The notes under the pieces are model-generated. The model was given only the letters and a program-made list of their open reading frames with translations. It did not search any database and had not been told where the DNA came from. Shown in pieces: positions 1 through 16,673 of a DNA stretch of 21,605 bases. The translations under genes were made by a program, and so were the position numbers. Origin of the DNA: a virus (Duplodnaviria; Heunggongvirae; Uroviricota; Caudoviricetes); IMG/VR virus record IMGVR_UViG_2681813318_000014. One strand, 5' to 3'. Every line of letters begins with the position of its first letter. Position 1 is the stretch's first letter.

Positions 1-186
1 TTAGTTTGTTTTACCATCATCAATCGTAATTGTGATTTCATATTTGAAAAGCTTAATGCTGAAATTGAAGCGTGTACTTTTGGCGATAATCATTTTTAAA
101 AGCTGATACACCAGAAGCACCAGAAACACAAAGCAACCTAAGCTTGCGAATCTGTGAGATTCAGCAATTGTTTCAAGAAAGCCCAT
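1..186 (-). CDS. small predicted membrane protein (61 aa), divergent from the RHH regulator gene
   Basis: ATG at 186 with AAGGGG RBS about 6 nt upstream; hydrophobic stretch LGCFVFLVLLVYQLL; stop at 1-3; own consensus-like promoter (237-265, minus strand). Confidence 0.35.
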   Translation of the reverse strand: MGFLETIAESHRFASLGCFVFLVLLVYQLLKMIIAKSTRFNFSIKLFKYEITITIDDGKTN

Positions 187-236
187 TAATTCCCCTTATT
201 TATCAAAGGGAATGACCTGTATCAGCCCCTGTAACC

Positions 237-287
237 ATAATATCATGTAAATGAGATGTTGACAATATGTTAAATAAATGTTAAGAT
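237..287. promoter_or_regulatory. divergent face-to-face sigma70 promoters with overlapping -35 boxes
   Basis: Plus strand: TTGACA 259-264, 17-bp spacer, TG-n-TAAGAT 279-287 (extended -10), driving the 323 gene. Minus strand: TTGTCA (complement of 260-265), 17-bp spacer, TATTAT (complement of 237-242), driving the 1..186 gene. Confidence 0.45.
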
Positions 288-322
288 TGTAGTATGAGTA
301 AGAGATTTAAGGAGATTTTACA

Positions 323-613
323 ATGACTCACACAGTTACGCGCCTTTTGCCAGAGGCATTTGAACGACTGGCAGCAATCAAAGCCAAATATCCCGATATG
401 AAGCACACAGCGCTTGTTGGGGAGATTTTAAAAGAGTCGGTAAACCTTAGCCCTTTCGATAACGTTAAGGGCGTTGCAGAGGGTTCTAAGGCCATCAGAA
501 TCACAACAGGCCAACTGGAACTACTCAAAGCACAGTCCGCAGTAGCAGGCTGCTCAATGATTCAGGTCTTGAGCGATAAGGTTTGCAAGCTTGCTGATAA
601 ATTGGAGGTTTAA
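323..613 (+). CDS. putative DNA-binding regulator with two ribbon-helix-helix-like repeats (CopG/Arc/Mnt type), 96 aa
   Basis: ATG 323 with AAGGAG 8 nt upstream; two segments with beta-strand-then-two-helices pattern (TRLLPEAFERLAAIKAKY... and IRITTGQLELLKAQSAVAGCSMIQVL); stop TAA overlaps next ATG (TAATG). Confidence 0.55.
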   Translation: MTHTVTRLLPEAFERLAAIKAKYPDMKHTALVGEILKESVNLSPFDNVKGVAEGSKAIRITTGQLELLKAQSAVAGCSMIQVLSDKVCKLADKLEV

Positions 614-999
614 TGTATGACTTTTATAAACATCGTGACCATTTGGTAAGATTTGACGGTAGAGTCTGGAAAGACATAACAGAAACCAATAAACCCAAGT
701 TTACCCACCAGCAATTAGCCTCAAGATTTGATATCTGGACTGAAGCACAAAAAGATAATGGTGATTTCGAGTTTATCAGGGGTTTTGATTATGCTTACGA
801 AGACGACCTTAAAGACGCCATTAAATTAATTGAAAATTTTAATGGAAATAATTCTGGTGACAAACACAAAGCCAATGGTAATCGGTATGACAGGGAGTTA
901 ATTCTTGATGCCATTTCCAGAGGTCAATCACAAAGTTATATTTCTGAGAAATACGGTTTATCACGCAGTCAATACTACAAGATTAAAGCGTCTGTGTAA
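613..999 (+). CDS. hypothetical protein with C-terminal helix-turn-helix (128 aa)
   Basis: ATG 613 overlapping upstream stop, GGAGG RBS at 604-608; C-terminal DRELILDAISRGQSQSYISEKYGLSRSQYYKIK resembles recombinase/terminase-small-subunit type HTH. Confidence 0.5.
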   Translation: MYDFYKHRDHLVRFDGRVWKDITETNKPKFTHQQLASRFDIWTEAQKDNGDFEFIRGFDYAYEDDLKDAIKLIENFNGNNSGDKHKANGNRYDRELILDAISRGQSQSYISEKYGLSRSQYYKIKASV

Positions 1000-1136
1000 G
1001 CCTGTGAGAATGAGTGAGACTCAAAGATGAGCTACCCTATTACTAAGGTGTCTCACTCCCTCTGTAACCCGCATGGTTACTGGCCTCAGAATGGCTATTT
1101 TGGCAGATTTAAGATGTGTTTTAGAGGAATTTAAAA

Positions 1137-1460
1137 ATGAATAATCACCCAATGCAAATTTTCGTTGATAACGACACCGCTATGATGATTCAGGCTTTCA
1201 CTGATGTAGGTGTTAGCATTGACTTTGATAAGTTGTTAGAGTTAATGGCTGATAATGCGGAAAGCATCTCTGACTTTATTCACTCGGTGGAGTTTAACGA
1301 GCCTCGAATGATGCTACCAATTAAAGACAGCAACATGAAAAGATTGGTTATCGAGCAAACGAACAAATACAGCGTTAGCCCTGAAAAATATCTCAAGGCA
1401 GCTATAGCAATTTTGTACAGCGATAATATTCTGGTGACGGATTCGAAGGTGGTGCATTAA
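1137..1460 (+). CDS. hypothetical protein (107 aa)
   Basis: ATG 1137 with GAGGAA RBS 7 nt upstream; no recognisable motif. Confidence 0.5.
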   Translation: MNNHPMQIFVDNDTAMMIQAFTDVGVSIDFDKLLELMADNAESISDFIHSVEFNEPRMMLPIKDSNMKRLVIEQTNKYSVSPEKYLKAAIAILYSDNILVTDSKVVH

Positions 1461-1537
1461 TGGGTTTAATAATTGCTTGGACGCTGTTAGGGTTATTTGT
1501 TGGTTGCTGGATGGGTAACACAGTAAATAAGAATTGA
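1460..1537 (+). CDS. possible 25-aa hydrophobic peptide (MGLIIAWTLLGLFVGCWMGNTVNKN)
   Basis: ATG overlaps the upstream TAA (TAATG); AAGGTGG-like RBS 7 nt upstream; single transmembrane-like segment; below the ORF-track size cutoff. Confidence 0.3.
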   Translation: MGLIIAWTLLGLFVGCWMGNTVNKN

Positions 1538-1561
1538 TGTTACCAATCTGTTAAAAAGCTG

Positions 1562-1590
1562 TTGACAAATAACCTTAAACATGACATAAT
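1562..1590 (+). promoter_or_regulatory. near-consensus sigma70 promoter (TTGACA-17-CATAAT with TG extension)
   Basis: TTGACA 1562-1567, 17-bp spacer, TGaCATAAT 1582-1590; followed by AGAGAG/CTCTCT hairpin at 1610-1626 and about 430 nt without an ORF before the 2023 gene. Confidence 0.45.
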
Positions 1591-1760
1591 TTTAATTATA
1601 GAGAGAATTGCTCTCTTATTTCTTTCAACAATTCCATCTACATCTAGGGATAGTTATTCTGAAAGGTGCAATGCTTTTCGCTACATGGCCTATTTAGCCC
1701 ACTAGATAGGCTATATATCAAAAAGTGCTTAATCATTCATTATTGAACCCTTACAGCTTT

Positions 1761-1788
1761 GCCCTAATCATGAGTTAGGGCTTTCTTT
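1761..1788 (+). terminator. intrinsic-terminator-like hairpin
   Basis: GCCCTAA (1761-1767), 7-nt loop, TTAGGGC (1775-1781), then TTTCTTT. Confidence 0.4.
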
Positions 1789-1857
1789 AAGAGTTTTTAA
1801 ACAGAGCTTTTAAAGAAAGTTTTTCCTGAAACTTCGTTAACGTTAAAGCAAACCTTC

Positions 1858-1901
1858 AAAGCCCTTCACAGATAAGGATGAACCTATGTTTAGGGCTTTT
1901 T
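1858..1901 (+). terminator. second terminator-like hairpin in the leader
   Basis: AAGCCCT (1858-1864) pairs with AGGGCTT (1891-1897), followed by a T6 run; the loop is long (about 26 nt), so the structure may be more complex. Confidence 0.3.
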
Positions 1902-2022
1902 TCAGCTTTTAAAAAGCATACTTGGCAAACCGCCTTTTAAGCCTCTTCTAAGTTTAGATAGGCTGTCAGGTGTGCTTTTTAAAAACTGAAACATAAATTA
2001 TCTTAGAAGAGGAAAAATAATA

Positions 2023-2727
2023 ATGTCTATCCGTGATGAACATGAAATGATTATCGAAAACAAACCAAGTGCACTTGATATTCACGAATTAAGTTTGCGT
2101 GAATCTTTTGATAGAGCTTGGCGGGAATCACACGAAGTAAATAAAGGTCCATATATTCCACCAGAACCACTCGAGATTCCAAGAGTTGAAATTGATTTTT
2201 CTATGAACGAACGGTGTGAACTTGATTTGAAGTTGAAGCTACAACGCCGATATTTCCAAGCTATTAAAGACTCTCAAGAAGCAATGAGAAGTGTTTACGA
2301 GAAAATTCAGTCCAAGCTTGAAGACGAAATTGACGAAATGGCTATTTTGATGGAGCTTCAAACCAATTCTTATGCTTATTTCTCTCGACTAGACCGTGAC
2401 GGTTGGGGGTATGACCCTGTAGAGATTGGTAAAGTGATTGCAGATTTACCAGAAGGTCAAAGAGTTGTTCGTACAGAAAGAGCCATTAGAGCGCCACATC
2501 GACTGTCTCTAATTGTTGCTGATAAATCACAAGCTGAGCTTGAAGAAATTGCCAAAGAGAAACTGATGAAAGCAAGAGAAAATGAGATTAATTTGCTGAA
2601 ATCAAGACTGGCTAAGCTGATTAGTGACCATCAAGCGCTGGCTAAGGAGTACCGTCAAGAGTTGGCACAGATTATCAGCTTCAATGATTTTCTGAGTGTT
2701 CCACGAGAATTTAGCAAGGCTGTTTAA
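2023..2727 (+). CDS. hypothetical protein, charged/helical (234 aa)
   Basis: ATG 2023 with GAGGA RBS; composition rich in E/K/R/L suggests coiled coil; no recognised motif. Confidence 0.55.
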   Translation: MSIRDEHEMIIENKPSALDIHELSLRESFDRAWRESHEVNKGPYIPPEPLEIPRVEIDFSMNERCELDLKLKLQRRYFQAIKDSQEAMRSVYEKIQSKLEDEIDEMAILMELQTNSYAYFSRLDRDGWGYDPVEIGKVIADLPEGQRVVRTERAIRAPHRLSLIVADKSQAELEEIAKEKLMKARENEINLLKSRLAKLISDHQALAKEYRQELAQIISFNDFLSVPREFSKAV

Positions 2728-2749
2728 TTATGCATATGTGAGGTGATGA

Positions 2750-2965
2750 ATGATTGATTTAACAGAACGCTATGAAACTATTCGGTCTGTTTGTGAAAAC
2801 TTAAAGTTACAAACTAAACCAGCCTTAAGAATTAAAAGCAAACATCAAATTATCACCTCACGCAAACCAAAAACACGCAAGATTCCAAAGTGGTGTATCG
2901 ACCGTATCCCTTCCGATGCTCAAATTATAGGTGAAACGGAACTACATTATCTTGTCAGGCATTAA
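2750..2965 (+). CDS. small basic hypothetical protein (71 aa)
   Basis: ATG 2750 with GAGGTG RBS; K/R-rich. Confidence 0.45.
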   Translation: MIDLTERYETIRSVCENLKLQTKPALRIKSKHQIITSRKPKTRKIPKWCIDRIPSDAQIIGETELHYLVRH

Positions 2966-3062
2966 AAAAGAATGGTTGGGTGTATGAGATAGGTTCTATC
3001 GAATCTATAACACGGGGAGAGATTATCGAGTGATATCGGTAGTTTCTCCCTTTTTTGTATGT

Positions 3063-3129
3063 GTGCTACGTGAAATCTTCTGAACAGATATACCCACCAA
3101 AAATTATTTTTTACGTAGCTCACGCTTAA
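3063..3129. repeat. about 65-bp conserved element, copy A, immediately upstream of the tape-measure-like gene
   Basis: CTACGTGAA...ATACCCAC-CAAAAATTATTTTTTACGTAGCTCACGCTTAA; a 32-bp core is identical to copy B at 5326-5392; contains the internal inverted repeat GCTACGT...ACGTAGC about 41 bp apart. Confidence 0.6.
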
Positions 3130-3147
3130 AGAGGTGAAAAAATATGA

Positions 3148-5316
3148 ATGGCACAATTTAAAGTTGATGATTTTCTGATTGAGTTAAGTTTTAACTCTCA
3201 GAAAGTTTTAAAAGGCTTGGAAAAAGCCGAGAAACAAACGATGCAGGTAGCATCACGAATTGAGAAGCGATTGAATAAAGCTTTTAAAGTTAACCCTACG
3301 CCTTTAAATGATTCTCTCAAGGTCATGGAAAGAAATGTCGATAAAACTGTTTCCAAGATTGAGCAGCGTCTTAAAAACACTAGAGTGTTTAAGATTAAAA
3401 CGGAAATTGAGGATACTTTAAAGCCACTTAGACAACCAAGACAGCCACGAATTAGCGGCAACAGAGCAATCACAGCAGCTTACTCAGCGAATATGAGCAA
3501 GCTAAAAGGCTTTGACCCTATTTTGCAGAAATACATCAAATCTCAGTTTTACGGGCTATCTGCTAAAGCCGGGTCAATGGATAATTCAAAATTCAATGAG
3601 AAGCTGGCTCAGCTAAATGCTTCAGTCAGAGAAGCAATTGCTAAAGCTAAAGGTCATACATCCACCAGCATTAATAATACAAGCGACGCATTTAATAATC
3701 TTGCAAGCAATGCAATTAAGTTATCTGGTGCATTTTACTCTGTGATGGGTGCTCTTAACGCTTACAAGGCCATTATGAATGCAGGTCTTAAACGAGATTC
3801 CGCACAGAGAGCCGCTAAGTTTGTACTTGGTGATAAAGCATCTGAGGCTGAAACATTTATCAGGGGACTGGCTGACAAGACAGGTCTTAATATCTCTGAA
3901 GGGCTATCAAGCTACGCTAAGTTTGCAGCAGGTGCTCAGGGTTCTATGTCACAGGAACAGACACAGGAGCTATTTGGTAATGCAACGGCTATGAGTCGCT
4001 TAATGGGGCTTAGTAATGATGAGCTAAACGGCATTTTGAAAGCTTTTGAGCAGATGGCTTCTAAGGGCAAGATTCAGGCTGAAGAATTACGTGGGCAGTT
4101 AGGTGACCGTATGGCTGGTGCATTTAAGCTATTCGCTGAAGCACTGGGTATGACTGCTACAGAGCTTGATAAAGCGATGAAAGACGGGAAGATTTTAAGT
4201 AGTGATACTCTCCCTAAAGTCGCTAAACAGATGGGCTTGATGATTGATAAAGCGGGTGGCTGGGCTGAAGTCGCTAAGAGCACCCAGACAGCTTTAGGTA
4301 AGTTAGCAAACAACTGGGATGATACGATGGTGAAAATCTTCTCAGGTTCACAGGATGAGCTAAACGGCTTCTTATCCAGCCTGAGTAACCTGCTTAGTGA
4401 AATGGGGATGAGTTCTTCTATCGCTGGTGATGCTATCGGTGGGCTTATCGACATGCTTAAAGCTGGTGTAGATGATATTCGCGTATTCAATAACACCATT
4501 GAAGGCTGGATTTTACAGGTTAAAAAGTTCTATTACAGCCTTGATGACACTAAACGAAAACTACTTGATGAAGTCGGTGATGGTTTTATCAATTTTGTCA
4601 AAGGTCTTGCTATAGCGTTATCTGCAAAGACGCTATTCAGTGCCACTACAGGGGTTATGAACCTGACAAGAGCAATCACAACGTTAGGTACAAGAGCTAA
4701 TCAGGTGGCTGGTCAGGTAGCTACTGGTAAAGGTGGTGAAAAACTGAAAGGTGTAGCTGGTGGTGTAGGTAGTGCTCTTGCAATTGGTTATGCTGATGAC
4801 GGTTATGAAACAGCGTTAGCATTAGCTTCAATGATTCCACAAATCAGAGGTGTCACCCTTGGTTTATATGCATTGAAGAAAGCACTGGATTTTATGAATC
4901 AGGAAGTAGTCAAAAACGCTAACATGCATCCATCTGGGGTAGGTGTGGGTAGTGACTTTAATCCTGTGTATTCTGGTGACCCTAATAAACCGAATATGAT
5001 TAATGAAGGGTGGATTAAAATTTTTAGTTCAATGGGTGAATTGTTTAACAATGCCACAATGAATATTGCAAGATTCAATCATCCAGAATTAAACAACATT
5101 AAGCAAGAAGCATCACTAACCAGCGCAGATATTCAAAGTCTGAGGGATGAAATCTCTGCTTTAAGTAAGCGTATTCAGGAGCCTGTGAAAGTTTCACTTG
5201 GTGGTGAAGTTGCCATTAAACCAGATGAAACATCGTTTATGACCTTTAGCGGTAATATTTACGACCAATACGCAGAAGCTACGCTATTAAGTTCATCATT
5301 TCCAGAAGATGATTGA
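3148..5316 (+). CDS. tape-measure-domain protein (phage tail length tape measure-like), 722 aa
   Basis: Segment LKAFEQMASKGKIQAEELRGQLGDRMAGAFKLFAEALGMTATELDKAMKDGKILSSDTLP matches the conserved tape-measure motif as recalled from memory; central Gly/Ala-rich hydrophobic segments; GAGGTG RBS upstream. Confidence 0.7.
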   Translation: MAQFKVDDFLIELSFNSQKVLKGLEKAEKQTMQVASRIEKRLNKAFKVNPTPLNDSLKVMERNVDKTVSKIEQRLKNTRVFKIKTEIEDTLKPLRQPRQPRISGNRAITAAYSANMSKLKGFDPILQKYIKSQFYGLSAKAGSMDNSKFNEKLAQLNASVREAIAKAKGHTSTSINNTSDAFNNLASNAIKLSGAFYSVMGALNAYKAIMNAGLKRDSAQRAAKFVLGDKASEAETFIRGLADKTGLNISEGLSSYAKFAAGAQGSMSQEQTQELFGNATAMSRLMGLSNDELNGILKAFEQMASKGKIQAEELRGQLGDRMAGAFKLFAEALGMTATELDKAMKDGKILSSDTLPKVAKQMGLMIDKAGGWAEVAKSTQTALGKLANNWDDTMVKIFSGSQDELNGFLSSLSNLLSEMGMSSSIAGDAIGGLIDMLKAGVDDIRVFNNTIEGWILQVKKFYYSLDDTKRKLLDEVGDGFINFVKGLAIALSAKTLFSATTGVMNLTRAITTLGTRANQVAGQVATGKGGEKLKGVAGGVGSALAIGYADDGYETALALASMIPQIRGVTLGLYALKKALDFMNQEVVKNANMHPSGVGVGSDFNPVYSGDPNKPNMINEGWIKIFSSMGELFNNATMNIARFNHPELNNIKQEASLTSADIQSLRDEISALSKRIQEPVKVSLGGEVAIKPDETSFMTFSGNIYDQYAEATLLSSSFPEDD

Positions 5317-5325
5317 TTTAACGGT

Positions 5326-5392
5326 GTTCTACGTGAATAAAGCAAAGTTAATACCCACACCAAAAATTATTTTTTACGTAGCTCACGCTTAA
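5326..5392. repeat. about 65-bp conserved element, copy B, immediately upstream of the 5473 gene
   Basis: CTACGTGAA...ATACCCACACCAAAAATTATTTTTTACGTAGCTCACGCTTAA; same core and same internal inverted repeat as copy A. Confidence 0.6.
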
Positions 5393-5472
5393 CAGAGAAA
5401 ACACTTATATATCAAAGGCTTGGTTAAAAATGATTAAAATACACTAAGCCTTTGAAATCAAAGGAGAATTTA

Positions 5473-6261
5473 ATGATTTTTAGCAATCAAATCCGCTACA
5501 GTGGCAAAGATGGCATCTATTTCCACTTAAGAGATAATGTAGATGCCTTCTTAACTTTATCAGCTACTGAAAACATGGAATTTGACAGCCCTATGCAGGT
5601 CACTACACAAAACATGCAATCAGGGCAAACCGTCACAGATAATGTGCAAAGAGCACCCAGAACAATCACTATTAGTGGTGTCGTTGTAGTTGGCTATGAA
5701 GGGAGCTTATTATTAACTCGTCAGGGCCAGTTAGTAGAAAACTTCATCGACACTCTTGAAAGCTGGAGAGACCAGAAACAAATTATTTCAGTGATTTGTA
5801 AAGATGGTATCAAGATTGATGACTCAATTATTACCAACTTTAAAGCCTCTAAAGATGTTACTATCTCTAACGGTCTTCGTATCCAGCTAACTTTTCAGGA
5901 AATTAACTTCAAAGCCGTTGTGGGTCAAACTGATATTTCAGCAGCAACTGGAAAGACCGCTACTACAAATGATGGTGGTGTGACCAGTAAGAAGAATGCA
6001 GGTAACGTGACCACTGAACGCAATAACGCGCCTATGCTATCGTGCAAAGAGTTAATGAGTATTAACGATGTATCCGGTTACGCTCCAGCTATCAGAAATG
6101 ATATTCTCGATGCTCAGATTAAATGTAATAAGGCTTGGAAGCTGGATTATTCAGACTTAACAGAAGCTGAAAAAACCAACGTCACCAATGCTAACAGTAA
6201 CGCTGGTCGAGTAGCTTCAAAGCTTAAAAAGTACTCAGTGAACCCTCACAAAAAATACTAA
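5473..6261 (+). CDS. hypothetical beta-rich protein (262 aa), possibly a distal tail component
   Basis: ATG 5473 with AAGGAG 6 nt upstream (the track start at 5452 is a TTG with no RBS); position directly after a tape-measure gene; functional call is by position only. Confidence 0.5.
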
Positions 6262-6303
6262 ATCTCTACTACATCAACATCTATTAAACCCCTCTCAGTG
6301 ACT

Positions 6304-7782
6304 TCAGAAAGCGACTGTATAGCCTCTGTAACGTTGTCTGAGGGGTTTTCTGTTATTGGTAGGGTGGATTGACTTACTATTGTGAAAAGTTACTTTACAG
6401 CGACGTTTAGCAGTATTTAAAACGACCTCTTTAACAGCACTTTTGATTATCAGTTGTGCTTCAATCCTTCCCGCCTTTGTAGTCAAGTCACAATCAGACA
6501 AACACCCCACATCAATAGATTTAAGGCGTTGTGTCTCCTTCTCGATATCCGCATCAACCTGTGATAGCTCACCTTTTAACTGTTTTAGTTTGCTGGTAAT
6601 AGCGGACAAGTCTTCAATTTCAAGTGATAGCTGTACCAGCTTTTCAATATTGCTTGAGATGTGTTCACGGTGTAGCCTCAACATATCTATGGTATTCGTC
6701 ATATCGCTATCAAATCGGTCAAGACGAGATAGCAGGGTAAGTAATGTACCATCGGTTTGCTTACGTGACAGCCCTTTAGCACTACAACGGTTTTCATTAC
6801 GAAGAGGACAACGATAAATCCCGCTTCTTGTATCGCTAAAGCCTGTGATAATCAAAGCATGACCACATTCAGAACAACGGATAACACCTTTAAAGAGATT
6901 CACACTCAATGGTTTATCTGAAACAGGTTTTCTTCCATAACGAGAATATGATAGTTGCTGGACTTTGTAGAAATCAGTCTCAGGGATGATAGAGGGGAAA
7001 TAACCAGTTATCTCCTCACAGCCTTTAGGTGTGAAGTAACCAATTACAGAGCGATTCTTCAGAAGGTCTTGCACTGAGGTTTGACCAAACTTACCCGCTT
7101 TATATTGGTTAAGTGTCTGGTGACCTTCATCATTAAGAGTCCTGACAATCTCCCAGATAGACTTACCCTCTAACCGTAGCTGAAAGCACCTCTTCACAGT
7201 CTCCACTTTCTCAGGTATCACAGAGAAGCTTTTACGGTCATCATTCAGCCTTAACCATGCAGGACAACGCTTAGAAATCTTGATACCTTCAGAGATGAGT
7301 TCTTTTTTACGGTTCCATGCAGCTTGTATACGCTCAGACTTCCTCAAACTCTCCTCATGCGACCGCTGCATTATCAGAATGCTTTTAATCAGAGCTAACG
7401 GGTCTTTAAGAGATTCCCTTGTGTAATGTTCACCATCGGACAAGGTGACTACATCTACACCAGAGCGAAGAATGTTTCGTAATAGCTCACTTGCTCGGTC
7501 TACGTTCTGGCGTGACAAACGGTCAAGAGATTCTATCAAGAGCGTATCACCAGCTTTAACAAGCCCTTTCTCGATAGCGGTTAAAAAGTCACCTAAGCCA
7601 CCTTTCAAGTGCTTACCAGTAAACCCGCTAACGCCTAAATCACGGAAGGATAAATCTTGGTCAAGGTAGTACTCAGGATGAGCCTTAAGCCAGTCATTAA
7701 CCATCTTAGACTGTCTGCGTAGTGAATCACCTCGGGATTGCTTCTCAGATGAAAACCTGATGTAAGAAATGGCACGTTTCAT
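6304..7782 (-). CDS. large serine recombinase (integrase/resolvase family), 492 aa
   Basis: N-terminal resolvase-type catalytic region with Ser in AISYIRFSSEKQ; long recombinase domain; Cys-rich zinc-ribbon-like segment CSECGH...CP; C-terminal coiled coil; GGTGAGGTG RBS; at the edge of the AT-rich block next to chromosomal DNA. Confidence 0.85.
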   Translation of the reverse strand: MKRAISYIRFSSEKQSRGDSLRRQSKMVNDWLKAHPEYYLDQDLSFRDLGVSGFTGKHLKGGLGDFLTAIEKGLVKAGDTLLIESLDRLSRQNVDRASELLRNILRSGVDVVTLSDGEHYTRESLKDPLALIKSILIMQRSHEESLRKSERIQAAWNRKKELISEGIKISKRCPAWLRLNDDRKSFSVIPEKVETVKRCFQLRLEGKSIWEIVRTLNDEGHQTLNQYKAGKFGQTSVQDLLKNRSVIGYFTPKGCEEITGYFPSIIPETDFYKVQQLSYSRYGRKPVSDKPLSVNLFKGVIRCSECGHALIITGFSDTRSGIYRCPLRNENRCSAKGLSRKQTDGTLLTLLSRLDRFDSDMTNTIDMLRLHREHISSNIEKLVQLSLEIEDLSAITSKLKQLKGELSQVDADIEKETQRLKSIDVGCLSDCDLTTKAGRIEAQLIIKSAVKEVVLNTAKRRCKVTFHNSKSIHPTNNRKPLRQRYRGYTVAF

Positions 7783-7832
7783 TGTTCACCTCACCTAATA
7801 ACCCCTAGATTGTATCGCTTTAGGTGGTGTAT

Positions 7833-8234
7833 TTAAACGTGTCTAATAAAAATCACCCGATTAACGCCGCGCTGATGTAAACCGCGATTAAGCGTTTGTT
7901 CCTCTTCCCCTTTGGCGAAAAACTGTGGATGGCGGACTTCCACACCATAATTAAATTCGCCAGGGAGAGAATCGAGAAAATGCCAAAGCGCAGGCAGCTC
8001 CCGTGGGCCGAATGTGGCAGGCAGTTGCAGCCAGTATTGCCCAATGCGCGGAGCCAACGGTGACATGCGGGTCAAAAATTCAGTCACTAAATCATCGCAA
8101 TGTCGTAATGCTGCCTGATGCGAAATGGTCGCCGGAAACTTAAAACAGAAGCGGAAGTCATCTGTGGTCTGTTCACGCCAGCGCAGGACAACCTCGGGTT
8201 TCGGCAGGGCGTAAAGCGTGGTGTTGCCCTCCAC
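7833..8234 (-). pseudogene. yecE: fragment of a chromosomal DUF72-family gene (consistent with yecE), missing both ends
   Basis: GC-richer composition than both flanks; sequence CVEGNTTLYALPKPEVVLRWREQTTDDFRFCFKFPATISH fits the conserved DUF72 N-proximal pattern as recalled; no native start (frame open into the integrase 3' end); only about 133 codons versus roughly 270 expected. Confidence 0.5.
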
Positions 8235-8260
8235 GCAGTTAACATGACGGGTATTAAGGA

Positions 8261-9574
8261 TTAACTTACTGATTTTAATAAGCCTCTGGTGTCACTTTGG
8301 TGACTATGGGGCATCATTGGGACATAATCTGTCAGCTTCTGATTCAGCATTGCGATCTGTTCTGCATTGCTGTCAGTCATCCATGCTCCGTATACATTGA
8401 ATACCATCTGGGCACTTGCATGGCCCATCTGGCTGGCAATGAAGCTTGGGTTTGCTCCGGCAGATAATGACCAGCACGCATAAGTGTGTCGTGACTGGTA
8501 TGCCTTTCGATGCCTGATCCCTGCACGCTTAATGGCTGTTTCCCATGAGTCACCTACAGAATCGACTTTGTAGACAAAACCTACCTGTTCGCTTTTTCTA
8601 ACCACTTGAGGGTTAAACACGAAAGTACATTCATGGTTCACTGAACGTCCATATTCACGTAGTTGCACCTTGATGTTGTACTGCTTACCCAGTCTTGTCA
8701 TTTCAGCCTGATTTTTCAGGACACTGATAGCGGGCTGGATAAGGTGCACAACCCTGTTTGTGCTTGCTTCAGTTTTCGGTAGAGTGAACTCACCAAGTTT
8801 CGTATAATTGCGCCTGATGGTAATTGTTCCTGCCTTCAGATCGATATCTTCCCAGGCCAGGGAGACCAGTTCACCGTGACGCATTCCTGTGTACACAGCC
8901 AATGACCACAGGTTTTTCGTCTGCTGATGTCGGCAAGCATCTATCAGGCGAATAAATTCGTCACGAGTTAGCGGATCTGGCTCTGCCCTGGCTCTTTTAA
9001 GAGGCTTAATTCCCTGGAAGGGATTTGCTTCTAAGTAACCGTGATCTGCAGCAAACTGAAACATTCCAGCGATTGTCGTCATGTAATAATTTACAGTAAC
9101 GACGCTCCGTCCTTTTGCTGCTGCTTTGTTTTTCGTTGAATTCTGATACCCGGTAAGCAAATCTTTCCTGATATACAGCAATTCCTCTTTGGTTACCGAT
9201 GACACCAGTCTACTGCCTCCAATTTTCGGAACCATCGTTCTTGCAACGGATTCATAGCGATTGAATGCATTTGCAGAGATTTCCATTCGTTTCAGATCCA
9301 GCCACTTTTCTTCAAGTTCCTTCACCGTAATTTCTTTTTTACTTACCCCAAAAGCCTGAAGGTTGGGGGAGTCAGGGAACTGTGCAGCATAATCAAAGCT
9401 TCCTGTGCGGATGGCAAAACATACTGATGTCCGCAGTTCCCCGGCGATCTTCCTGTTCTTGGCAGTGTCAGGGACACCAAGATTTTCCCTGACACGTTTA
9501 CCGTTAAAATTAAACCAGATGCGTAATGTGCCGCCGTGGTTTTCGACGCCTGTTGGATATTTGACTTTATCCAT
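8261..9574 (-). CDS. int: phage tyrosine integrase (437 aa)
   Basis: C-terminal catalytic-region residues consistent with a tyrosine recombinase (AYQSRHTYA..., ...VYGAWM); N-terminal arm-type domain; GGAGGT RBS; immediately downstream of an excisionase-like gene on the same strand. Confidence 0.85.
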   Translation of the reverse strand: MDKVKYPTGVENHGGTLRIWFNFNGKRVRENLGVPDTAKNRKIAGELRTSVCFAIRTGSFDYAAQFPDSPNLQAFGVSKKEITVKELEEKWLDLKRMEISANAFNRYESVARTMVPKIGGSRLVSSVTKEELLYIRKDLLTGYQNSTKNKAAAKGRSVVTVNYYMTTIAGMFQFAADHGYLEANPFQGIKPLKRARAEPDPLTRDEFIRLIDACRHQQTKNLWSLAVYTGMRHGELVSLAWEDIDLKAGTITIRRNYTKLGEFTLPKTEASTNRVVHLIQPAISVLKNQAEMTRLGKQYNIKVQLREYGRSVNHECTFVFNPQVVRKSEQVGFVYKVDSVGDSWETAIKRAGIRHRKAYQSRHTYACWSLSAGANPSFIASQMGHASAQMVFNVYGAWMTDSNAEQIAMLNQKLTDYVPMMPHSHQSDTRGLLKSVS

Positions 9575-9629
9575 CGATACCTCCAGACGCCCAAGAGCGA
9601 TACGAGCTTACATATTTCATGATATTAAA

Positions 9630-9866
9630 TCACCTGGGTTGTTTGTTTTTCATTGAGGCGACCCAGGCATCTATTGCTTTTCTGTTATACATACATTCAC
9701 TGGAAGGCTTTGGATTACCGTCTGGTGATACGTGAATATACTCTCTTCCAACCATCCAGCATTCTTTCCGGGCCCGAAGAATTGTGCCTGGTTTGAGCCC
9801 GGTAATTGCGATAAGAACGCTTTCACAAACCCATTCATTGGGAGCCAGTTGAATCACATTGCCCAT
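9630..9866 (-). CDS. xis: excisionase-like protein (78 aa)
   Basis: Small basic protein directly upstream of int on the same strand; TGAGG RBS; resembles the lambdoid-prophage excisionase-like family from memory. Confidence 0.55.
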   Translation of the reverse strand: MGNVIQLAPNEWVCESVLIAITGLKPGTILRARKECWMVGREYIHVSPDGNPKPSSECMYNRKAIDAWVASMKNKQPR

Positions 9867-9874
9867 GTATTACC

Positions 9875-10021
9875 TCACACAACACTCAGCCCACGGCAGT
9901 GGCACCACACTTCAAACATTCGCTTCACAACTTCACGACAGTAGAAGCCGTCAACATCTCGCGTCAGGTCATAGCGATTGCCGTAACGCTGGTGGACCCA
10001 TCGTTCAAATGCTTTATTCAT
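9875..10021 (-). CDS. possible small protein (48 aa), below ORF-track cutoff
   Basis: ATG at 10021 with AGGAAG RBS 7 nt upstream; begins 4 nt after the upstream gene's stop; its stop lies 8 nt before the xis ATG. Confidence 0.3.
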   Translation of the reverse strand: MNKAFERWVHQRYGNRYDLTRDVDGFYCREVVKRMFEVWCHCRGLSVV

Positions 10022-10024
10022 TCT

Positions 10025-10267
10025 TTACTTCCTTTTTATGGCTCGTAATTTTTTCAGGTGCTTTTCCTGCTCAGTGTCCGCGAGAATTTTGCGGTACTCC
10101 TGGTGGTCAATATGTTCGAACAGGCAGTTTAACTCACCAATGCGTACCCGCCCGGATCGTCCGTCCATCCGTCGAAAGAACACTGAGTGCTCAGTGATGC
10201 GAGTAATCACCACGGGGTATCCGGCTCTGTCCGTGTATATCTGACCGCGTTGAATCAAAGCGAACAT
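10025..10267 (-). CDS. hypothetical phage protein (80 aa)
   Basis: ATG 10267; sits in the tightly packed early-left operon. Confidence 0.5.
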   Translation of the reverse strand: MFALIQRGQIYTDRAGYPVVITRITEHSVFFRRMDGRSGRVRIGELNCLFEHIDHQEYRKILADTEQEKHLKKLRAIKRK

Positions 10268-10271
10268 GTGG

Positions 10272-10355
10272 TTATCCCCAGCGGCAAATCGAATACACCA
10301 TCAGCGTCACCGCCATCGCAATTCCTACCGTTGTTAATGCTTCAGGCCAGGTCAT
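10272..10355 (-). CDS. possible 27-aa hydrophobic peptide ([27 protein letters not shown])
   Basis: ATG overlaps upstream stop (ATGA at 10352-10355); GGAGG RBS 10 nt upstream; single transmembrane-like segment. Confidence 0.3.
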
Positions 10356-10696
10356 CGTAAAATATCCTCCACGCTTATCAGTCCGTTCCGCTCCAGATAA
10401 CTCATCGCCTTATCCGGTAATTTGCAGTCTGGCTTCGCTTTCCTCAGTTGCCAGGTTAACTGCTTTACCAGCATGGTTAACTCATCGACCAGACGCTGAT
10501 ATCCCACTGGTTTGTATTCATGCAATTTACCGGCTGGCTCTGCTGCCAGCGATACCAGTGCGATTTCCAGAACAGCAATATCCATCTTATATGTGCGGAT
10601 GATGTCATGGTCGATTGTACCCGGTATGCACAGTCTCTGTGCTTCAATAGTCTCCTCTGCGTGAGCTATTAACTGCTCTCTGGTAAAAGTCGTCAT
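10352..10696 (-). CDS. hypothetical phage protein (114 aa), paralog of the next gene
   Basis: ATG 10696 in ATGA overlap with upstream stop; AAGGGG RBS; shares the [10 protein letters not shown] motif and a 29-bp DNA repeat with 10693..10878. Confidence 0.55.
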
Positions 10697-10878
10697 GCCG
10701 TAGCCCCTTCTTGATATTTTTCAAACCAGAACACAACCGGCTCTGCTTCCAGCGATACCAGTGCAATTCGTGCCAGTTCTTCCGCTTCTTCTGCTGGCAG
10801 TACAACGTTGCTACCCGGTCCGTATGTTTCGCGCCACTGCTTGATTGTCAGCAGTCGCCCTTTGGTAATAGTGATCAT
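10693..10878 (-). CDS. hypothetical phage protein (61 aa), paralog of 10352..10696
   Basis: ATG 10878 in ATGA overlap; AAGGAA RBS; motif [10 protein letters not shown]. Confidence 0.5.
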
Positions 10879-11390
10879 GCCGCGTTTCCTTCTTTCTTAT
10901 TAACAATCACACCGTCATATATTTCATTAAGGTGCCCTCTCAACTCCATGCGCCTTAATGCAGATAACATGTAATCGCATTCAACCTGCTTATTCCCAGT
11001 AAATGGCTTATCGTCAGGATTACCCCAACAGCAATTACCCCTGGGCCATCCATGTACTTTCCGTACTCTTCCGTTAACAACGTGAAGTAATCCCCAGCCG
11101 GGAGGTAAATCCTCAACTGAAATAATTTCCGGCTCACTAATAAAGAATCGCCAGTCGCCCATGCCAAGTGAGGGATTTTTACGGAAACGCTTTTTTCTAT
11201 CTGCCAACAAGTCAGCACGAGAACACTTCGCCTCTATCAGGCATGATGCTGAATTTCTGAATCCCATAGCATCTGGCTGTTCTCCGGTACTGGTTACAGC
11301 AACAAAGCGGTCATGAAAGCAAACCTTGAACCCGTTGCGCTTAAGGAACTTGTACGCAATCTGACAGAGTTCGTGGTGTGTTAACGCCAT
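10875..11390 (-). CDS. putative PD-(D/E)XK nuclease, MmcB-like (171 aa)
   Basis: Start moved to ATG 11390 (AAGGAG 6 nt upstream; track start 11423 is TTG); motif DAMGF...CLIEAKCSRADLLAD...DWRFFISEP fits the D...E-x-K nuclease core of the MmcB-like family as recalled. Confidence 0.55.
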   Translation of the reverse strand: MALTHHELCQIAYKFLKRNGFKVCFHDRFVAVTSTGEQPDAMGFRNSASCLIEAKCSRADLLADRKKRFRKNPSLGMGDWRFFISEPEIISVEDLPPGWGLLHVVNGRVRKVHGWPRGNCCWGNPDDKPFTGNKQVECDYMLSALRRMELRGHLNEIYDGVIVNKKEGNAA

Positions 11391-11391
11391 A

Positions 11392-11877
11392 TCACTCTCC
11401 TTTGATGCGAATGCCTGTTGCAATGCTGTTTATGATGCTGTCAGTGCATGGGGTAGAAAGCTGGGCATCTCCAGCAATTTTCATGACCTCAACATCTGCA
11501 TATCGAATACCGAGGTGTATCAGACCGGCTATGCCTGACTTAAGCCGAGCATTTTCCATAAATAGAACTTTTGCCCGCTGTTTTTCTGCTTCAAGCTCAA
11601 CGCGCAGCTTCCCTACCGTTAGCGCAATATCCTCGTTCTCCTGATCGCGGCTTTTGATGTATTGCAGGTTTCTTTCCCGTTCATCCAGCAGTGCCAGCAC
11701 GGTTTCTGGTCCGGTCAGAAATTTGAAGGCGTTGAGCGCATCAATATCCACACCGTAATCTTTAAGTTCCTGTTCACTTAACAAGTCATCATCAGCTGGC
11801 AACATTAACAGGCGTTCCATTGCTGGAATTGCACGTTCCGCCACCTCACGCAGTGCCTGGTAATTAATTTCGCTCAC
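11392..11877 (-). CDS. Ea22-like early protein (161 aa)
   Basis: GTG start at 11877 with AAGGAGG RBS 6 nt upstream; N-terminus MSEINYQALREVAE is characteristic of the Ea22-like family in lambdoid phages; GTGA overlap with upstream stop. Confidence 0.55.
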   Translation of the reverse strand: MSEINYQALREVAERAIPAMERLLMLPADDDLLSEQELKDYGVDIDALNAFKFLTGPETVLALLDERERNLQYIKSRDQENEDIALTVGKLRVELEAEKQRAKVLFMENARLKSGIAGLIHLGIRYADVEVMKIAGDAQLSTPCTDSIINSIATGIRIKGE

Positions 11878-12380
11878 TGGTTGCCTCCTTTGCGAAGCTG
11901 GGCAGCAAAGTCAACTAACCACTCAGTCATTTCAACCTTCCCTACCAGGTCTGAACCAGGGTACATACAGCAATCACTCTGCGCCGCTTTGAAATCCTTA
12001 TACTCATATTCTTGGGCCACCAGATTTTTTGCAGCTTCTATAGCAGCGTCCACCCCCTGCGCCCGGACTTCAGCCAGGAAAGCATCAGTGGTTGGCGTTT
12101 CAGGTATCTGTCTCCTCATCCGTTCTATTGCATGATTGAACCCGAAGTCTTCCGCGAGAGATACGTCATCCATATTGTCATTGTCATCCTCAATATCCCG
12201 TGATTCTGGAATTGCAGACTTTATTCCCGCATTCTCCGCTGCCAGCGCCGCGCACTTGGCCTCAAGAGCGGCAACCACTTCCTGATGGTCTTTGTACTTA
12301 ACGTATGAGCCGGAGATGTCATCACCTTCGGTGTTTAGCCATGCGTCATTGCAATTCACTGCGTAGGTTCTGATGCTCAT
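11874..12380 (-). CDS. acidic hypothetical phage protein with coiled-coil segment (168 aa from the internal ATG)
   Basis: ATG 12380 with GGGAGAG RBS, in ATGA overlap with the stop of 12377..12559; the track's longer 208-aa version begins at an upstream ATG without an RBS. Confidence 0.5.
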   Translation of the reverse strand: MSIRTYAVNCNDAWLNTEGDDISGSYVKYKDHQEVVAALEAKCAALAAENAGIKSAIPESRDIEDDNDNMDDVSLAEDFGFNHAIERMRRQIPETPTTDAFLAEVRAQGVDAAIEAAKNLVAQEYEYKDFKAAQSDCCMYPGSDLVGKVEMTEWLVDFAAQLRKGGNQ

Positions 12381-12559
12381 GTTGATGCTCTCCCGCCCCT
12401 GACAGACGCCAGGCCAGTCAATAAAGTATCCGCAATGCCTACCCTCAGACGTGCGCGCAGGATAAATGCCGTTATGACCCGGCAAATATATGCTACCCAT
12501 TCATCTTGCGTTGCCTGTTCCGCCGCCTCGCGCAGTGCCTGATAGTCAATCTTGCTCAC
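12377..12559 (-). CDS. short Ea22-like N-terminal-module protein (60 aa), possibly a recombination remnant
   Basis: GTG 12559 with AAGGAGG RBS; the first about 22 residues (MSKIDYQALREAAEQATQDEWVA) match the Ea22-like N-terminus, the rest is low-complexity; its 5' region is a DNA paralog of the 11877 gene start. Confidence 0.35.
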   Translation of the reverse strand: MSKIDYQALREAAEQATQDEWVAYICRVITAFILRARLRVGIADTLLTGLASVRGGRAST

Positions 12560-12860
12560 TGGCAGCCTCCTTTGCCGGGATTTCTAACTTTTGAGTGGTT
12601 GTATCAAATTCAAACAACTTAACCACGTCATCAAACAGGACATAATCACCATCAGGATCTTCAGTCATATCTGCGCCACAATCCTGACCGCACGAGTCGC
12701 AACCATCCATATCAAGCTCGTATCGCTTCAGGTTTGCGATATTTGATAAATTCAGCGCCAGTACAGCCAGGTCATAAACCTCTTCGGCAGTGACATCGCT
12801 GTTCAGTCCCATTTCATGGCGATATATGATTTTTTCTACTCGTTGTTTTGTGATCGTCAT
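12546..12860 (-). CDS. hypothetical phage protein (104 aa)
   Basis: Start moved to ATG 12860 (GGAGTG RBS 9 nt upstream); acidic C-terminus. Confidence 0.5.
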   Translation of the reverse strand: MTITKQRVEKIIYRHEMGLNSDVTAEEVYDLAVLALNLSNIANLKRYELDMDGCDSCGQDCGADMTEDPDGDYVLFDDVVKLFEFDTTTQKLEIPAKEAASEQD

Positions 12861-13131
12861 TTTTCTCTTCACTCCGATATACAAGGATTACTACACCCCC
12901 TCTGCTGATTGCGCGAGCTGGATCCCCTGGTTCCATGCCGTCAATTCCGAAGGCTTCGGAAAACGCATTCATTGCCTTCTGGCGTTCATCCTGCTTACGG
13001 CGTTTATTCCATTTTTTCAGGAACAACAGCGACAGCCACCGTCCGCTGCAGAACACGATGTAAAAATAACCAAGGAGCGCCAGGCCGACATTCAGGGCCG
13101 TTTCTATGGTTAGTTGTGAGTCAGTTGCCAT
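12814..13131 (-). CDS. small predicted membrane protein (105 aa)
   Basis: ATG 13131; N-terminal transmembrane-like segment LNVGLALLGYFYIVFCSG followed by a basic stretch KKWNKRRKQDERQK. Confidence 0.4.
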   Translation of the reverse strand: MATDSQLTIETALNVGLALLGYFYIVFCSGRWLSLLFLKKWNKRRKQDERQKAMNAFSEAFGIDGMEPGDPARAISRGGVVILVYRSEEKNDDHKTTSRKNHISP

Positions 13132-13369
13132 TTCTTACCTGTTTAAGTAACTGGTTGAACATAACACTTAGGGGATTGCTGTATCCAAACGGCAGATTGT
13201 TTACGCAGTACAGAATCATTTTGTTTTTTTCTCCAGTTCGTACTATTAACCCATTCCACAATAACCGTGATAATTCATTACTGATAGAAGTTGCGCTTCT
13301 TCCAAGTGCGAGGGATATATCTTCTCTACTGCAATCTGGATTTTCCTGGATATACTCGATAACGGTCAT
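13121..13369 (-). CDS. small winged-helix/HTH-like protein (82 aa)
   Basis: Start moved to ATG 13369 (AAGGGA RBS right after the upstream stop); segment CSREDISLALGRSATSISNELSRLLWNGLIV looks like an HTH. Confidence 0.45.
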   Translation of the reverse strand: MTVIEYIQENPDCSREDISLALGRSATSISNELSRLLWNGLIVRTGEKNKMILYCVNNLPFGYSNPLSVMFNQLLKQVRNGN

Positions 13370-13379
13370 GTGGTCCCTT

Positions 13380-13961
13380 TTACTTAATATCTGTTTCGGA
13401 TTGCATGCCATGAGTATTCATTTCGTTAATAATTTCATCCAGAAGGATTTCAAGCCCTTCTCGACCCATATCTGAAAGAATGAAACCTTTATCAGGGGAA
13501 GTAGTGAGCATTTTCTGATAAAGAAACAGCGCTCTTCCCATTCCTTCAGCTTCGCCGTATTTTTGAATTAAATTCCATTCAATATACTGTTGTAAGGCAA
13601 ATCGAATGGGGCCGGGATATATCGTCATAAACCCATACATCCCGTTATATACCACGGCGTGTTCAGTTGTTCCGTGTTCATTCAGGATATCAATTGTGCC
13701 GTTCTTGTCTTCTTCTTCGTTGATGAATGTCGTCACATACAACCATCGCCACTGAGCAACCTTCATCTCAACCGGAAGTTTACCCAGTAATCCTGCTTCG
13801 TCGGCTTGCGCCAGACACTGAAGGATACGTAAACCTCGCACATTAGGAGTATCGAATTCTCCGGCATCCAGACGACGTATGGCGTCGTGATAATCAATCG
13901 TCATACTGCCAGTTCGTATACCATTGGCTGTTGCTTCAGCCTGGAATTCATCGTATTGCAT
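13380..13961 (-). CDS. hypothetical protein (193 aa)
   Basis: ATG 13961 with GAGGAA RBS 8 nt upstream; no recognised motif. Confidence 0.55.
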   Translation of the reverse strand: MQYDEFQAEATANGIRTGSMTIDYHDAIRRLDAGEFDTPNVRGLRILQCLAQADEAGLLGKLPVEMKVAQWRWLYVTTFINEEEDKNGTIDILNEHGTTEHAVVYNGMYGFMTIYPGPIRFALQQYIEWNLIQKYGEAEGMGRALFLYQKMLTTSPDKGFILSDMGREGLEILLDEIINEMNTHGMQSETDIK

Positions 13962-13966
13962 GATAT

Positions 13967-14155
13967 TTATTCCTCATCTTCATCTTCATCTGCTGGTGCA
14001 ATAACGTCATATCCTGCCCTTTCTGCAATAAACAGGAATGTTGAAAGAGTTCCTACAAGTTCATCGTCATGAACATGGCGAATGAATATTACTTTCCCGT
14101 TTTTGATGGTCAGCAATATTCTGGTTTGTTCGTGTTCTGCTGTTTTCTGATGCAT
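13967..14155 (-). CDS. small acidic hypothetical protein (62 aa)
   Basis: ATG 14155 with GGGAGA RBS; C-terminal DEDEDEE tail. Confidence 0.45.
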   Translation of the reverse strand: MHQKTAEHEQTRILLTIKNGKVIFIRHVHDDELVGTLSTFLFIAERAGYDVIAPADEDEDEE

Positions 14156-14157
14156 TA

Positions 14158-14271
14158 TTATCTCCCGTATGCTTTACGCAGAAATAAGCAGGCAATATGC
14201 ATGTAATTTTCACCGTATTGTGCAATAAGGCAGGCGGTCTTGTGTGATGCCATATTCTTTATAAAAGTCAC
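14158..14271 (-). CDS. possible 37-aa ORF in the 195-bp intergenic region
   Basis: GTG start with AGGAGG RBS 7 nt upstream; stop overlaps the RBS of the next gene; weak. Confidence 0.2.
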   Translation of the reverse strand: MTFIKNMASHKTACLIAQYGENYMHIACLFLRKAYGR

Positions 14272-14304
14272 AATAAAGCCTCCTGTGGATTAAGGTTGTA
14301 ACAA

Positions 14305-14346
14305 TCCCCGGCGATAAAACCGCAATAAACGTTCAGGGCATATTTG
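14305..14346 (-). terminator. terminator-like hairpin after the 121-aa gene
   Basis: Minus-strand reading: GCAATAAC...GTTTATTGC stem starting 4 nt after the stop, followed by GGTTTTAT. Confidence 0.35.
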
Positions 14347-14349
14347 TTG

Positions 14350-14715
14350 TTATTGCGCTAATTCTTTTTCGGCAGCAGCTTTTGTATACTCACATGCAAA
14401 ACTCAGAATTTCGCTGCCGAGTGTTTTCGTTTCGTGATTACTGGACATATGTAATACCTGTGTTGCATGCAATAAATGATAAACATTTACCGCAAATGAA
14501 TCAGGCTCCAGACAAATGCCTTCGTAATTATCTTGCTGTGAGGTTGTTTCTGTCATTGCTCCTGAAGTGCATGCGAGCCTGTTTTTGACAATTCTCTTTT
14601 CTCTAATCACTATATCGGCAACATCTATTGCCTTTACAACCTCCGGGAGAAGTTCCGGGTTTGTATAATCAAAGTCATCAACATGGAGAACAGTTATGTT
14701 TTCGAACTTTTTCAT
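14350..14715 (-). CDS. hypothetical protein (121 aa), second gene of the cI-adjacent module
   Basis: ATG 14715 with GAGGAAG RBS 4 nt upstream; no recognised motif. Confidence 0.55.
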   Translation of the reverse strand: MKKFENITVLHVDDFDYTNPELLPEVVKAIDVADIVIREKRIVKNRLACTSGAMTETTSQQDNYEGICLEPDSFAVNVYHLLHATQVLHMSSNHETKTLGSEILSFACEYTKAAAEKELAQ

Positions 14716-14846
14716 GGCTTCCTCAGCTGACTTATATGTTCTGCTATATAGCGAGTCTCAGAAGTGTTTTCATATTGAGACTGTTTCCGCAATGATTGAT
14801 AAAAATGTTCGCATGTACCTTGAAGGGCGAAGCGGCGATTATGTCA

Positions 14847-15392
14847 CTATTGGTATTGGTTCTTCCGCAGAAGAGCTTCGCGAGATAAGGGGCAAACTTG
14901 TTGAGATGCGTCATGGTGTTGCTGCTCCTCACTTTTTGGTTGCTCCGGAGGAGTAACCTCACCAGTTAACAGCCACATCGGATCGCAGCCAAGAATATTT
15001 GCCAGTGGGATAAGCATACTGATAGTTGGTTCATACTCTCCGCTCTCCCACTGGATGATAATTTCTTCATCGAGATCGAGCAGCCTGGCGAGTTCGGCGG
15101 TTGTTAAGCCGCAGGCTTCGCGTTGGGTGCGAAGGTTAACCAGCCAGCTTTCAGGGAAGGATTGTTTTTGTTGTGCAGGAGAAGCAGCAGATAGAGCATA
15201 TTCATGGATAAATTCCATTACCTCAATGCCCAGTTCCTTTGAGCGAGCACAATCCAGAAGATGGAATGTGCGTACAGCACTTAGCAAATTTGCAATATTT
15301 AATGCAAAGGAATCAAGTTCTAAGCCCTTAAGCGTAACACAGCCGCAGTTGATAAAATTAGTTGTTTCTGGAGTTGCTTTTAGTGTCTTCAT
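14847..15392 (-). CDS. two-domain protein with C-terminal XRE-type helix-turn-helix (181 aa from ATG 15392)
   Basis: HTH segment LTTAELARLLDLDEEIIIQWESGEYEPTISMLIPLANILGCDPMWLL; the track start at 15422 is a TTG, the first ATG is at 15392; the N-terminal 90 residues are unassigned. Confidence 0.55.
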   Translation of the reverse strand: MKTLKATPETTNFINCGCVTLKGLELDSFALNIANLLSAVRTFHLLDCARSKELGIEVMEFIHEYALSAASPAQQKQSFPESWLVNLRTQREACGLTTAELARLLDLDEEIIIQWESGEYEPTISMLIPLANILGCDPMWLLTGEVTPPEQPKSEEQQHHDASQQVCPLSREALLRKNQYQ

Positions 15393-15444
15393 ATATCCGC
15401 CAACAATTTTAAATTGAATCAAATCAAGTTATAATTGATGGTGC

Positions 15445-15473
15445 GATATTATGTTTTGGGAAACAGGCTGTCA
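15445..15473 (-). promoter_or_regulatory. PL-like early-left promoter
   Basis: Minus strand TTGACA (complement of 15468-15473), 17-bp spacer, TAATAT (complement of 15445-15450); near-palindrome ATCAAGTTATAATTGAT at 15423-15439 just downstream, operator-like. Confidence 0.45.
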
Positions 15474-15503
15474 AGAAAAAATTGATATCGTATATTTCAG
15501 GCA

Positions 15504-15525
15504 GAAAAAAACGGGCAAAGCCCGT
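15504..15525 (-). terminator. intrinsic terminator after the cI gene
   Basis: Minus-strand hairpin ACGGGC-TTT-GCCCGT followed by a T7 run, 13 nt after the cI stop. Confidence 0.5.
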
Positions 15526-15537
15526 TAAAATCAAAGA

Positions 15538-16227: not shown

Positions 16228-16233
16228 GACCAA

Positions 16234-16633: not shown

Positions 16634-16673
16634 TGGTGGTGATATGAGCGAAAAAATAACTATTAAATACGAT

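Follow-up and report, generated by a model that had tools for sequence, protein, structure and literature searches.

Two elements with separate recombinases very probably occupy two attachment sites within the Escherichia coli gene yecE

The window analysed here is a 21,605-nt stretch of Caudoviricetes DNA (IMG/VR record IMGVR_UViG_2681813318_000014), in which the piece under study, positions 6304-9574, contains a gene for a large serine recombinase (LSR), a fragment of the chromosomal gene yecE, and a gene for a tyrosine integrase. It is very probable that two unrelated site-specific recombinases each placed their own element in yecE, at sites 377 bp apart, and each of them appears to have acted on its own attB without need of the other. 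The phiP27-type tyrosine integrase would insert a lambdoid prophage of about 50 kb at CACGCAGTTAA (yecE nt 86-96), and the LSR would insert a non-prophage island of about 10.8 kb at AAAATCA (yecE nt 473-479), resulting in the order yecN, the 3′ part of yecE, the LSR island, yecE nt 86-479, the prophage, the 5′ 96 nt of yecE, and yecD. With this order, the 394-bp piece in the middle would be plain chromosomal sequence lying between the attR of the island and the attL of the prophage. Both att sites of each element are retained, so that either should be able to leave on its own, reuniting its half of the gene. A reading made earlier from the sequence alone (the sequence-only reading) had proposed two independent integrative elements at different positions of the same gene, and this was supported by the separate duplicated cores of the two elements, by genomes in which a single site is occupied, and by repeated pairings of the two.

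The yecE fragment was located at positions 7849-8242 on the minus strand, and corresponds to nt 86-479 of the 819 nt of yecE in K-12, which was used as the intact reference. Of its 394 bases, 389 (98.7%) are identical to K-12, with the frame intact and no stop codon within, and the open reading frame (ORF) at 7833-8234 (−) covers positions 22-138 of the 217 positions of the DUF72 profile. GC content is 52.8% in the fragment, 39.5% in the left flank and 46.2% in the right flank, confirming the GC-richer DUF72 piece of about 400 bp that had been recognised beforehand. The three ORFs of the sequence-only reading, at 6304-7782 (−), 7833-8234 (−) and 8261-9574 (−), were positioned exactly, and its identification of the fragment as yecE stood, but the extent it gave, 7833-8260, was slightly too wide. 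It had also proposed an alignment to an uninterrupted yecE locus, which gave a match and defined the cores of both junctions.

All genome counts were made over 5426 complete E. coli genomes. With a 701-nt query spanning the region, yecE was matched in 5419 of them, and the yecE stretch of the query reached up to 100% identity in some uninterrupted genomes. The assignment to yecE is based on nucleotide identity together with collinearity with the native yecD-yecE-yecN locus, as seen in the native flanks of strain JKHS016 (CP147059), which was used with AP045169 as a doubly occupied reference. The order in JKHS016 is yecN, the 3′ part of yecE, a 10,834-bp island, the middle of yecE, a 51,661-bp prophage, the 5′ end of yecE, and yecD, with all yecE pieces collinear and in the same orientation. 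The insertions have presumably inactivated yecE, and the product encoded by the fragment in the window would be cut at a stop codon in island DNA (7833-7835).

Junction reads from K-12, the window and JKHS016 were compared, which showed that both cores are duplicated at the ends of their elements. At the left junction, K-12 reads GGCTGTCT-AAAATCA-CCCGATT and the window reads GTGTCTAATA-AAAATCA-CCCGATT, while the far end of the island in JKHS016 reads GGCTGTCT-AAAATCA-TCAAGGTC. The LSR crossover core AAAATCA (7849-7855 in the window, yecE nt 473-479) is present once in K-12 and at both island ends in JKHS016. At the right junction, the reads are CCTC-CACGCAGTTAA-AGTGGCGGGCAT in K-12 and CCTC-CACGCAGTTAA-CATGACGGGTAT in the window, with CGTAT-CACGCAGTTAA-AGTGGCGGGCAT at the far end of the JKHS016 prophage. 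This 11-bp tyrosine-integrase core (8232-8242, yecE nt 86-96) is identical to the annotated attL/attR of phiP27, and occurs once in K-12 yecE and at both ends of the 51,661-bp prophage. Once each element excises, the attB sequences expected are GGCTGTCTAAAATCACCCGATT and CTCCACGCAGTTAAAGTGGCGG.

The element-side arm of the LSR attR (7804-7848) holds the inverted-repeat arm GTGTATTTAAAC at 7827-7838. In the reconstructed attP, 13 of 14 positions agree between the inverted arms TAGTGTATTTAAAC and GTCTAAATACACTA (consensus TAGTGTATTTA[A/G]AC), and the centre of the dyad lies between the first two A's of the AAAATCA core. The core and the dyad symmetry of attP have the look of a large serine recombinase site, and the attP junction of JKHS016, GTGTCTAATAAAAATCATCAAGGTC, can be taken as a model for the circular island of the window. 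A sigma70-like promoter predicted for the LSR gene (7837-7809, minus strand) overlaps the inverted-repeat arm of attP. The genes for the integrase and the LSR run in the same direction as the yecE fragment, and no terminator-like site was found between them on their shared strand (7783-8260). Read-through coupling is therefore possible, and it is conceivable, but speculative, that an induced prophage would be read through into the LSR gene.

The LSR gene (6304-7782, minus strand) encodes 492 aa with Resolvase (PF00239, 3.7e-21), Recombinase (PF07508, 4.3e-14) and Zn_ribbon_recom (PF13408, 4.4e-07) domains, and the N-terminal R-x-S motif, YIRFSSEKQ, is invariant in four LSR copies. This architecture, taken with the core and the attP, points to a large serine integrase. 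The same combination of Resolvase, Recombinase and Zn ribbon domains, R-x-S motif, short core and dyad attP arms is shared with the LSRs of phiC31/Bxb1, YbcK, CcrA and XisF, although the LSR of the window falls far under the NCBIfam cut-offs for CcrA and XisF. Its nearest phage homologue is of the YbcK type and only 36% identical. No directionality factor was identified for the LSR.

The tyrosine integrase gene (8261-9574, minus strand) encodes 437 aa with Arm-DNA-bind_2 (PF12167, 1.9e-23) and Phage_integrase (PF00589, 3.1e-18) domains, and its product shares 95% aa identity with L01 of phiP27. An excisionase gene is placed adjacently at 9630-9866 (−) according to an excisionase-family annotation at the homologous position, and agrees in size and position with phiP27 L02. 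The arm-binding and catalytic domains, the adjacent excisionase and integration at the phiP27 core are consistent with an integrase of the phiP27 subtype. Positions 8232-10267 of the window are 91.7% identical at the nucleotide level to positions 1-2036 of phiP27 (NC_003356, an Stx2e phage), with att, int and xis in the same order and orientation. Past the integration module, the similarity between the two is confined to patches of the early region, at 79-98% identity, and no stx gene was found within the window. A second type of tyrosine integrase, 76% identical, adjoins this yecE fragment across a somewhat longer spacer in three IMG/VR contigs (L014, L015, L017). This end of yecE is thus a target for no fewer than two lineages of integrase.

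The gene is known as a recurrent site of lambdoid prophages and is disrupted by their insertion (Bobay et al. 2013, PMC3603311; PMC8112680), as the sequence-only reading had stated. For Stx1/Stx2 prophages at yecE, the att site is 21 bp by the authors' definition (Nakamura et al. 2021, PMC8112680). The systems described in these two papers have one prophage per yecE, or a yecE-like attB inside another prophage, and a second, LSR-dependent site 377 bp downstream is not described in them. The statement that yecE also receives a phage with a resolvase-type integrase was not borne out: phiP27 was considered as that phage and rejected, having a tyrosine integrase and the same 11-bp att, and no paper linking yecE with a resolvase was found in an incomplete literature search. 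In the literature searched, which was likewise incomplete, neither the second yecE site nor the island family was described. That one gene is occupied at two att sites is a known kind of event, as is to be expected of two site-specific integrases whose targets differ within a gene, and the arrangement itself is ordinary.

The LSR junction was detected in 270 genomes and the tyrosine junction in 471, with both present in at least 12. CP095526 carries only the tyrosine-integrase phage and CM149554 only the LSR element, and these were used as single-occupancy references beside the intact K-12. Among the doubly occupied loci, tape measure alleles of the island are 43-96% identical and integrase alleles 76-99.5% identical, and such differing pairings indicate that the combination arose repeatedly. 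The three-part arrangement is no assembly artefact, as it recurs in six IMG/VR contigs and in 12 or more complete genomes. These six were among 11 IMG/VR contigs recovered with the island tape measure protein, a proportion that is likely to arise because prophage callers take the small island only when it lies beside a real prophage.

Some observations weigh against two independent insertions, each able to be reversed. The far ends of both elements are beyond the window, and the att duplications were read in JKHS016, which is 95% identical. Co-occupancy was seen in 12 genomes compared to 23.4 expected under independence (hypergeometric P = 0.005); clonal sampling makes this test unreliable, and the number 12 is also a lower bound. 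Finally, compared to four other copies, the LSR gene of the window contains one additional G (+1) near 6367, and encodes 492 aa instead of the 507-aa consensus, with the last ~35 aa replaced. This frameshift may be a sequencing error; if it is real, the island copy of the window may no longer excise and may thus be locked in.

The right-hand 7.85 kb of the LSR island occupies positions 1-7848 of the window; the genes for the Dam-HTH protein and the replication initiator are in the remaining ~3 kb on the left, beyond the window. In JKHS016, the island measures 10,834 bp from core to core and encodes a Dam-HTH protein, an O-like replication initiator, several small proteins, a 234-aa protein, a tape measure protein, a Dit-like protein and the LSR. 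With Pfam and PHROGs, no gene for capsid, portal, terminase or lysis was recognised in the island. The left element is thus not a prophage but an island of 10.8 kb, on which the LSR and the replication initiator are accompanied by a tape measure and a tube initiator. A full phage matching it was sought, and none was found, the best being a 519-bp match to Felix O1-like phages. The tape measure gene (3148-5316, plus strand) encodes 722 aa and matches Pfam TMP_3, phrog_4036 (E 4.7e-90) and gp017 of PDB 9ndy (E 1e-69), and the gene for the Dit-like tail tube initiator (5452-6261, plus strand) encodes 269 aa and matches gp018 of 9ndy, 'Tube initiator protein' (E 1.6e-113). Directly upstream of these two genes are the copies of a 42-nt direct repeat (3088-3129, plus strand, and 5351-5392), which are 93% identical to each other. 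The repeat core ACGTAGCTCACGCTTAA is kept in the different island alleles and is missing from Felix O1, and the repeat probably serves the two genes in common as promoter or operator; the idea of a Felix O1 promoter motif was rejected, as the repeat was not found in Felix O1. For the 234-aa protein, there was no informative match in Pfam, PHROG or PDB, and its homologues were seen in E. coli, Shigella and Citrobacter only. Known defence systems were represented in the island by nothing more than an orphan methyltransferase and noise in PADLOC, with nothing useful from NCBIfam, and no Rfam match was found in positions 1-9600.

DNA related to the island was detected in 518 of the 5426 genomes, which is about 10% of finished E. 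coli genomes. Copies that have both yecE flanks and are free of insertion sequences measure 10.9-11.7 kb at 80-95% identity, and other copies have a different recombinase end and are located elsewhere. Nine tape measure alleles, down to 43% identity, gave near full-length matches to the query, mostly as one alignment. In Citrobacter freundii (L105-L107), the core order of replication initiator, small ORFs, a 235-aa protein, tape measure and Dit-like genes was observed at another chromosomal site, with a 514-aa serine recombinase and a 191-aa resolvase at the opposite end. Outside Escherichia and Shigella, a scan by species with the tape measure profile found almost only unrelated prophage tape measures.

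These data bear on the most serious alternative, which is that a once-complete prophage has decayed to leave the left element, with the LSR a fossil and the sandwich fixed. It would agree with an island having two tail genes only and no head or lysis genes, and with the frameshift in the LSR copy of the window. A remnant is not expected from what was found among the genomes: the wide occurrence of related DNA and the narrow size range and identity of the yecE-flanked copies, nine tape measure alleles that are essentially full length, a core gene order kept with other recombinases at other loci in both E. coli and Citrobacter, and an attP that keeps the dyad symmetry of the LSR type. No larger version of the island was seen. 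We therefore regard decay from a complete prophage as unlikely.

Much less credible is an explanation in which the yecE-like piece is an attB copy carried in a prophage, and the second element entered that copy. Prophages at ompW have been reported with a 100-bp yecE-like segment containing a 21-bp attB (PMC8112680), giving this idea a precedent. That segment, however, is only 87% identical to yecE over 100 bp, while the piece described here is 394 bp at 98.7%. Furthermore, in single-occupancy genomes the piece is continuous with the rest of yecE on the free side, and in JKHS016 the other parts of yecE flank both elements at the native yecN-yecD locus, making a carried copy very improbable. 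Equally improbable is a single composite element, with the LSR island as a lambdoid module, or an assembly chimera, since the fusion of both elements into one 'viral' contig in IMG/VR prophage calls and the accessory LSRs of YbcK type in some lambdoid phages are outweighed by the island being alone in most of its 270 yecE cases and the phage junction in most of its 471, by separate att cores, by an LSR only 36% identical to the YbcK type, and by the presence of the arrangement in at least 12 finished genomes.

With two independent insertions as the preferred reading, the nature of the smaller element can be considered. The only stretch of the island that resembles sequenced phages is at positions 5488-6006, which are about 91% identical at the nucleotide level to virulent Felix O1-like phages. 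Among phages, the closest homologues of the tape measure protein over its full length are without exception Felix O1-like (Ounavirinae), at 27-32% aa identity. ORF67-ORF68 of Felix O1 are adjacent and ordered like the island genes for the tape measure and the initiator, and gp017-gp018 of 9ndy follow this order too. Another island allele (locus L019) is closest to the genus Mooglevirus. GC content is 39.2% in the island and 39.0% in Felix O1. The non-coding left end of the island, beyond the window, has two blocks that are homologous only to ORF-free regions of Ounavirinae, in 249 phage records. One block (34290-34480 of L005, the JKHS016 locus) crosses the inner boundary of the 581-bp direct terminal repeat of phage vB_EcoM_D4, aligning as GGGCTACC and AAGCAGATATACATC on the two sides of that boundary, and is conserved among island variants with differing neighbouring genes. 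The second block, of 58 nt, matches the ORF40/ORF41 intergenic region of Felix O1. Beyond the tape measure gene, the initiator gene and the two non-coding blocks, no further significant homology to Felix O1 was found by tblastx.

These coding and non-coding homologies lead us to infer a specific interaction between the island and Felix O1-like lytic phages, in which the island would act as a satellite or an interference element. An integrase and replication functions of its own without a full virion set, together with sequence ties to a particular helper, are features that would suit a phage satellite in the generic sense. It is possible, although we would not call it probable, that the island family of about 11 kb in Escherichia, Shigella and Citrobacter comprises satellites, parasites or defences directed at virulent Felix O1-like myoviruses (Ounavirinae). 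Such a family would carry its own replication initiator and a matched tape measure and tube initiator taken from the helper lineage, and the non-coding copy of the helper terminal-repeat boundary could be a packaging or early-promoter mimic. If the island is a satellite, the ends of packaged island DNA would lie in the block GGGTACTTAG/CAGGTATA.

In the incomplete literature searched, nothing relevant was found on satellites of Felix O1-like phages or Ounavirinae. The island can be likened to PLE of Vibrio cholerae, a satellite of the virulent myovirus ICP1, and to PICMI of Vibrionaceae, by analogy only: the likeness is that of a small chromosomal island with an LSR, its own replication initiator, no virion set, and ties to a virulent myovirus. 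PLE is about 18 kb, compared to about 11 kb for the island, and neither PLE nor PICMI is known to carry a tape measure protein and a tube initiator as the island does. PHROGs, Pfam and PADLOC gave no diagnostic hit for the PLE, PICI, P4 or cfPICI families, whose reference sequences were not themselves compared.

The larger element is represented in the window by the integrase-proximal 13.4 kb of a lambdoid prophage (8243-21605), the remainder of which lies beyond; the relative in JKHS016 measures 51.7 kb. Between the core and the stop codon of the integrase gene is a short phage-side stretch (8243-8260), whose first part (8243-8254) is an imperfect mimic of yecE, with 8 of 12 bases matching. 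The mimicry was also observed at the coding level, where phage-side positions 8243-8279 give NTRHVNCVEG against YARHFNCVEG in yecE, and in a genome occupied by the phage only (L003, 2661-3431), NCBI calls a 256-aa yecE with an N-terminus supplied by the phage and a non-ATG start. Beside genes of Rha/antirepressor type, the early region of the prophage contains Rfam matches to isrK (17990-18066, plus strand, 58.7 bits) and to C4 antisense RNA (18091-18178, plus strand, 78.8 bits). A porin ORF at 20523-21605 (−) is clipped by the end of the window, and matching prophage regions elsewhere carry the annotation of an ompC-type porin.

The two insertions define a second, LSR-type attB in yecE (AAAATCA, nt 473-479), near the known attB of phiP27 and Stx phages. 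Prophage callers merge the two elements into one 'virus', and PCR typing of yecE occupancy could misread the locus likewise. If the island is in fact a satellite of virulent Felix O1-like phages, its family would be the analogue in E. coli of PLE-ICP1 in Vibrio, and would offer a genetically tractable model for satellites of lytic phages. It would then also bear on phage therapy and typing, in which phages of this type are applied to Salmonella and E. coli.

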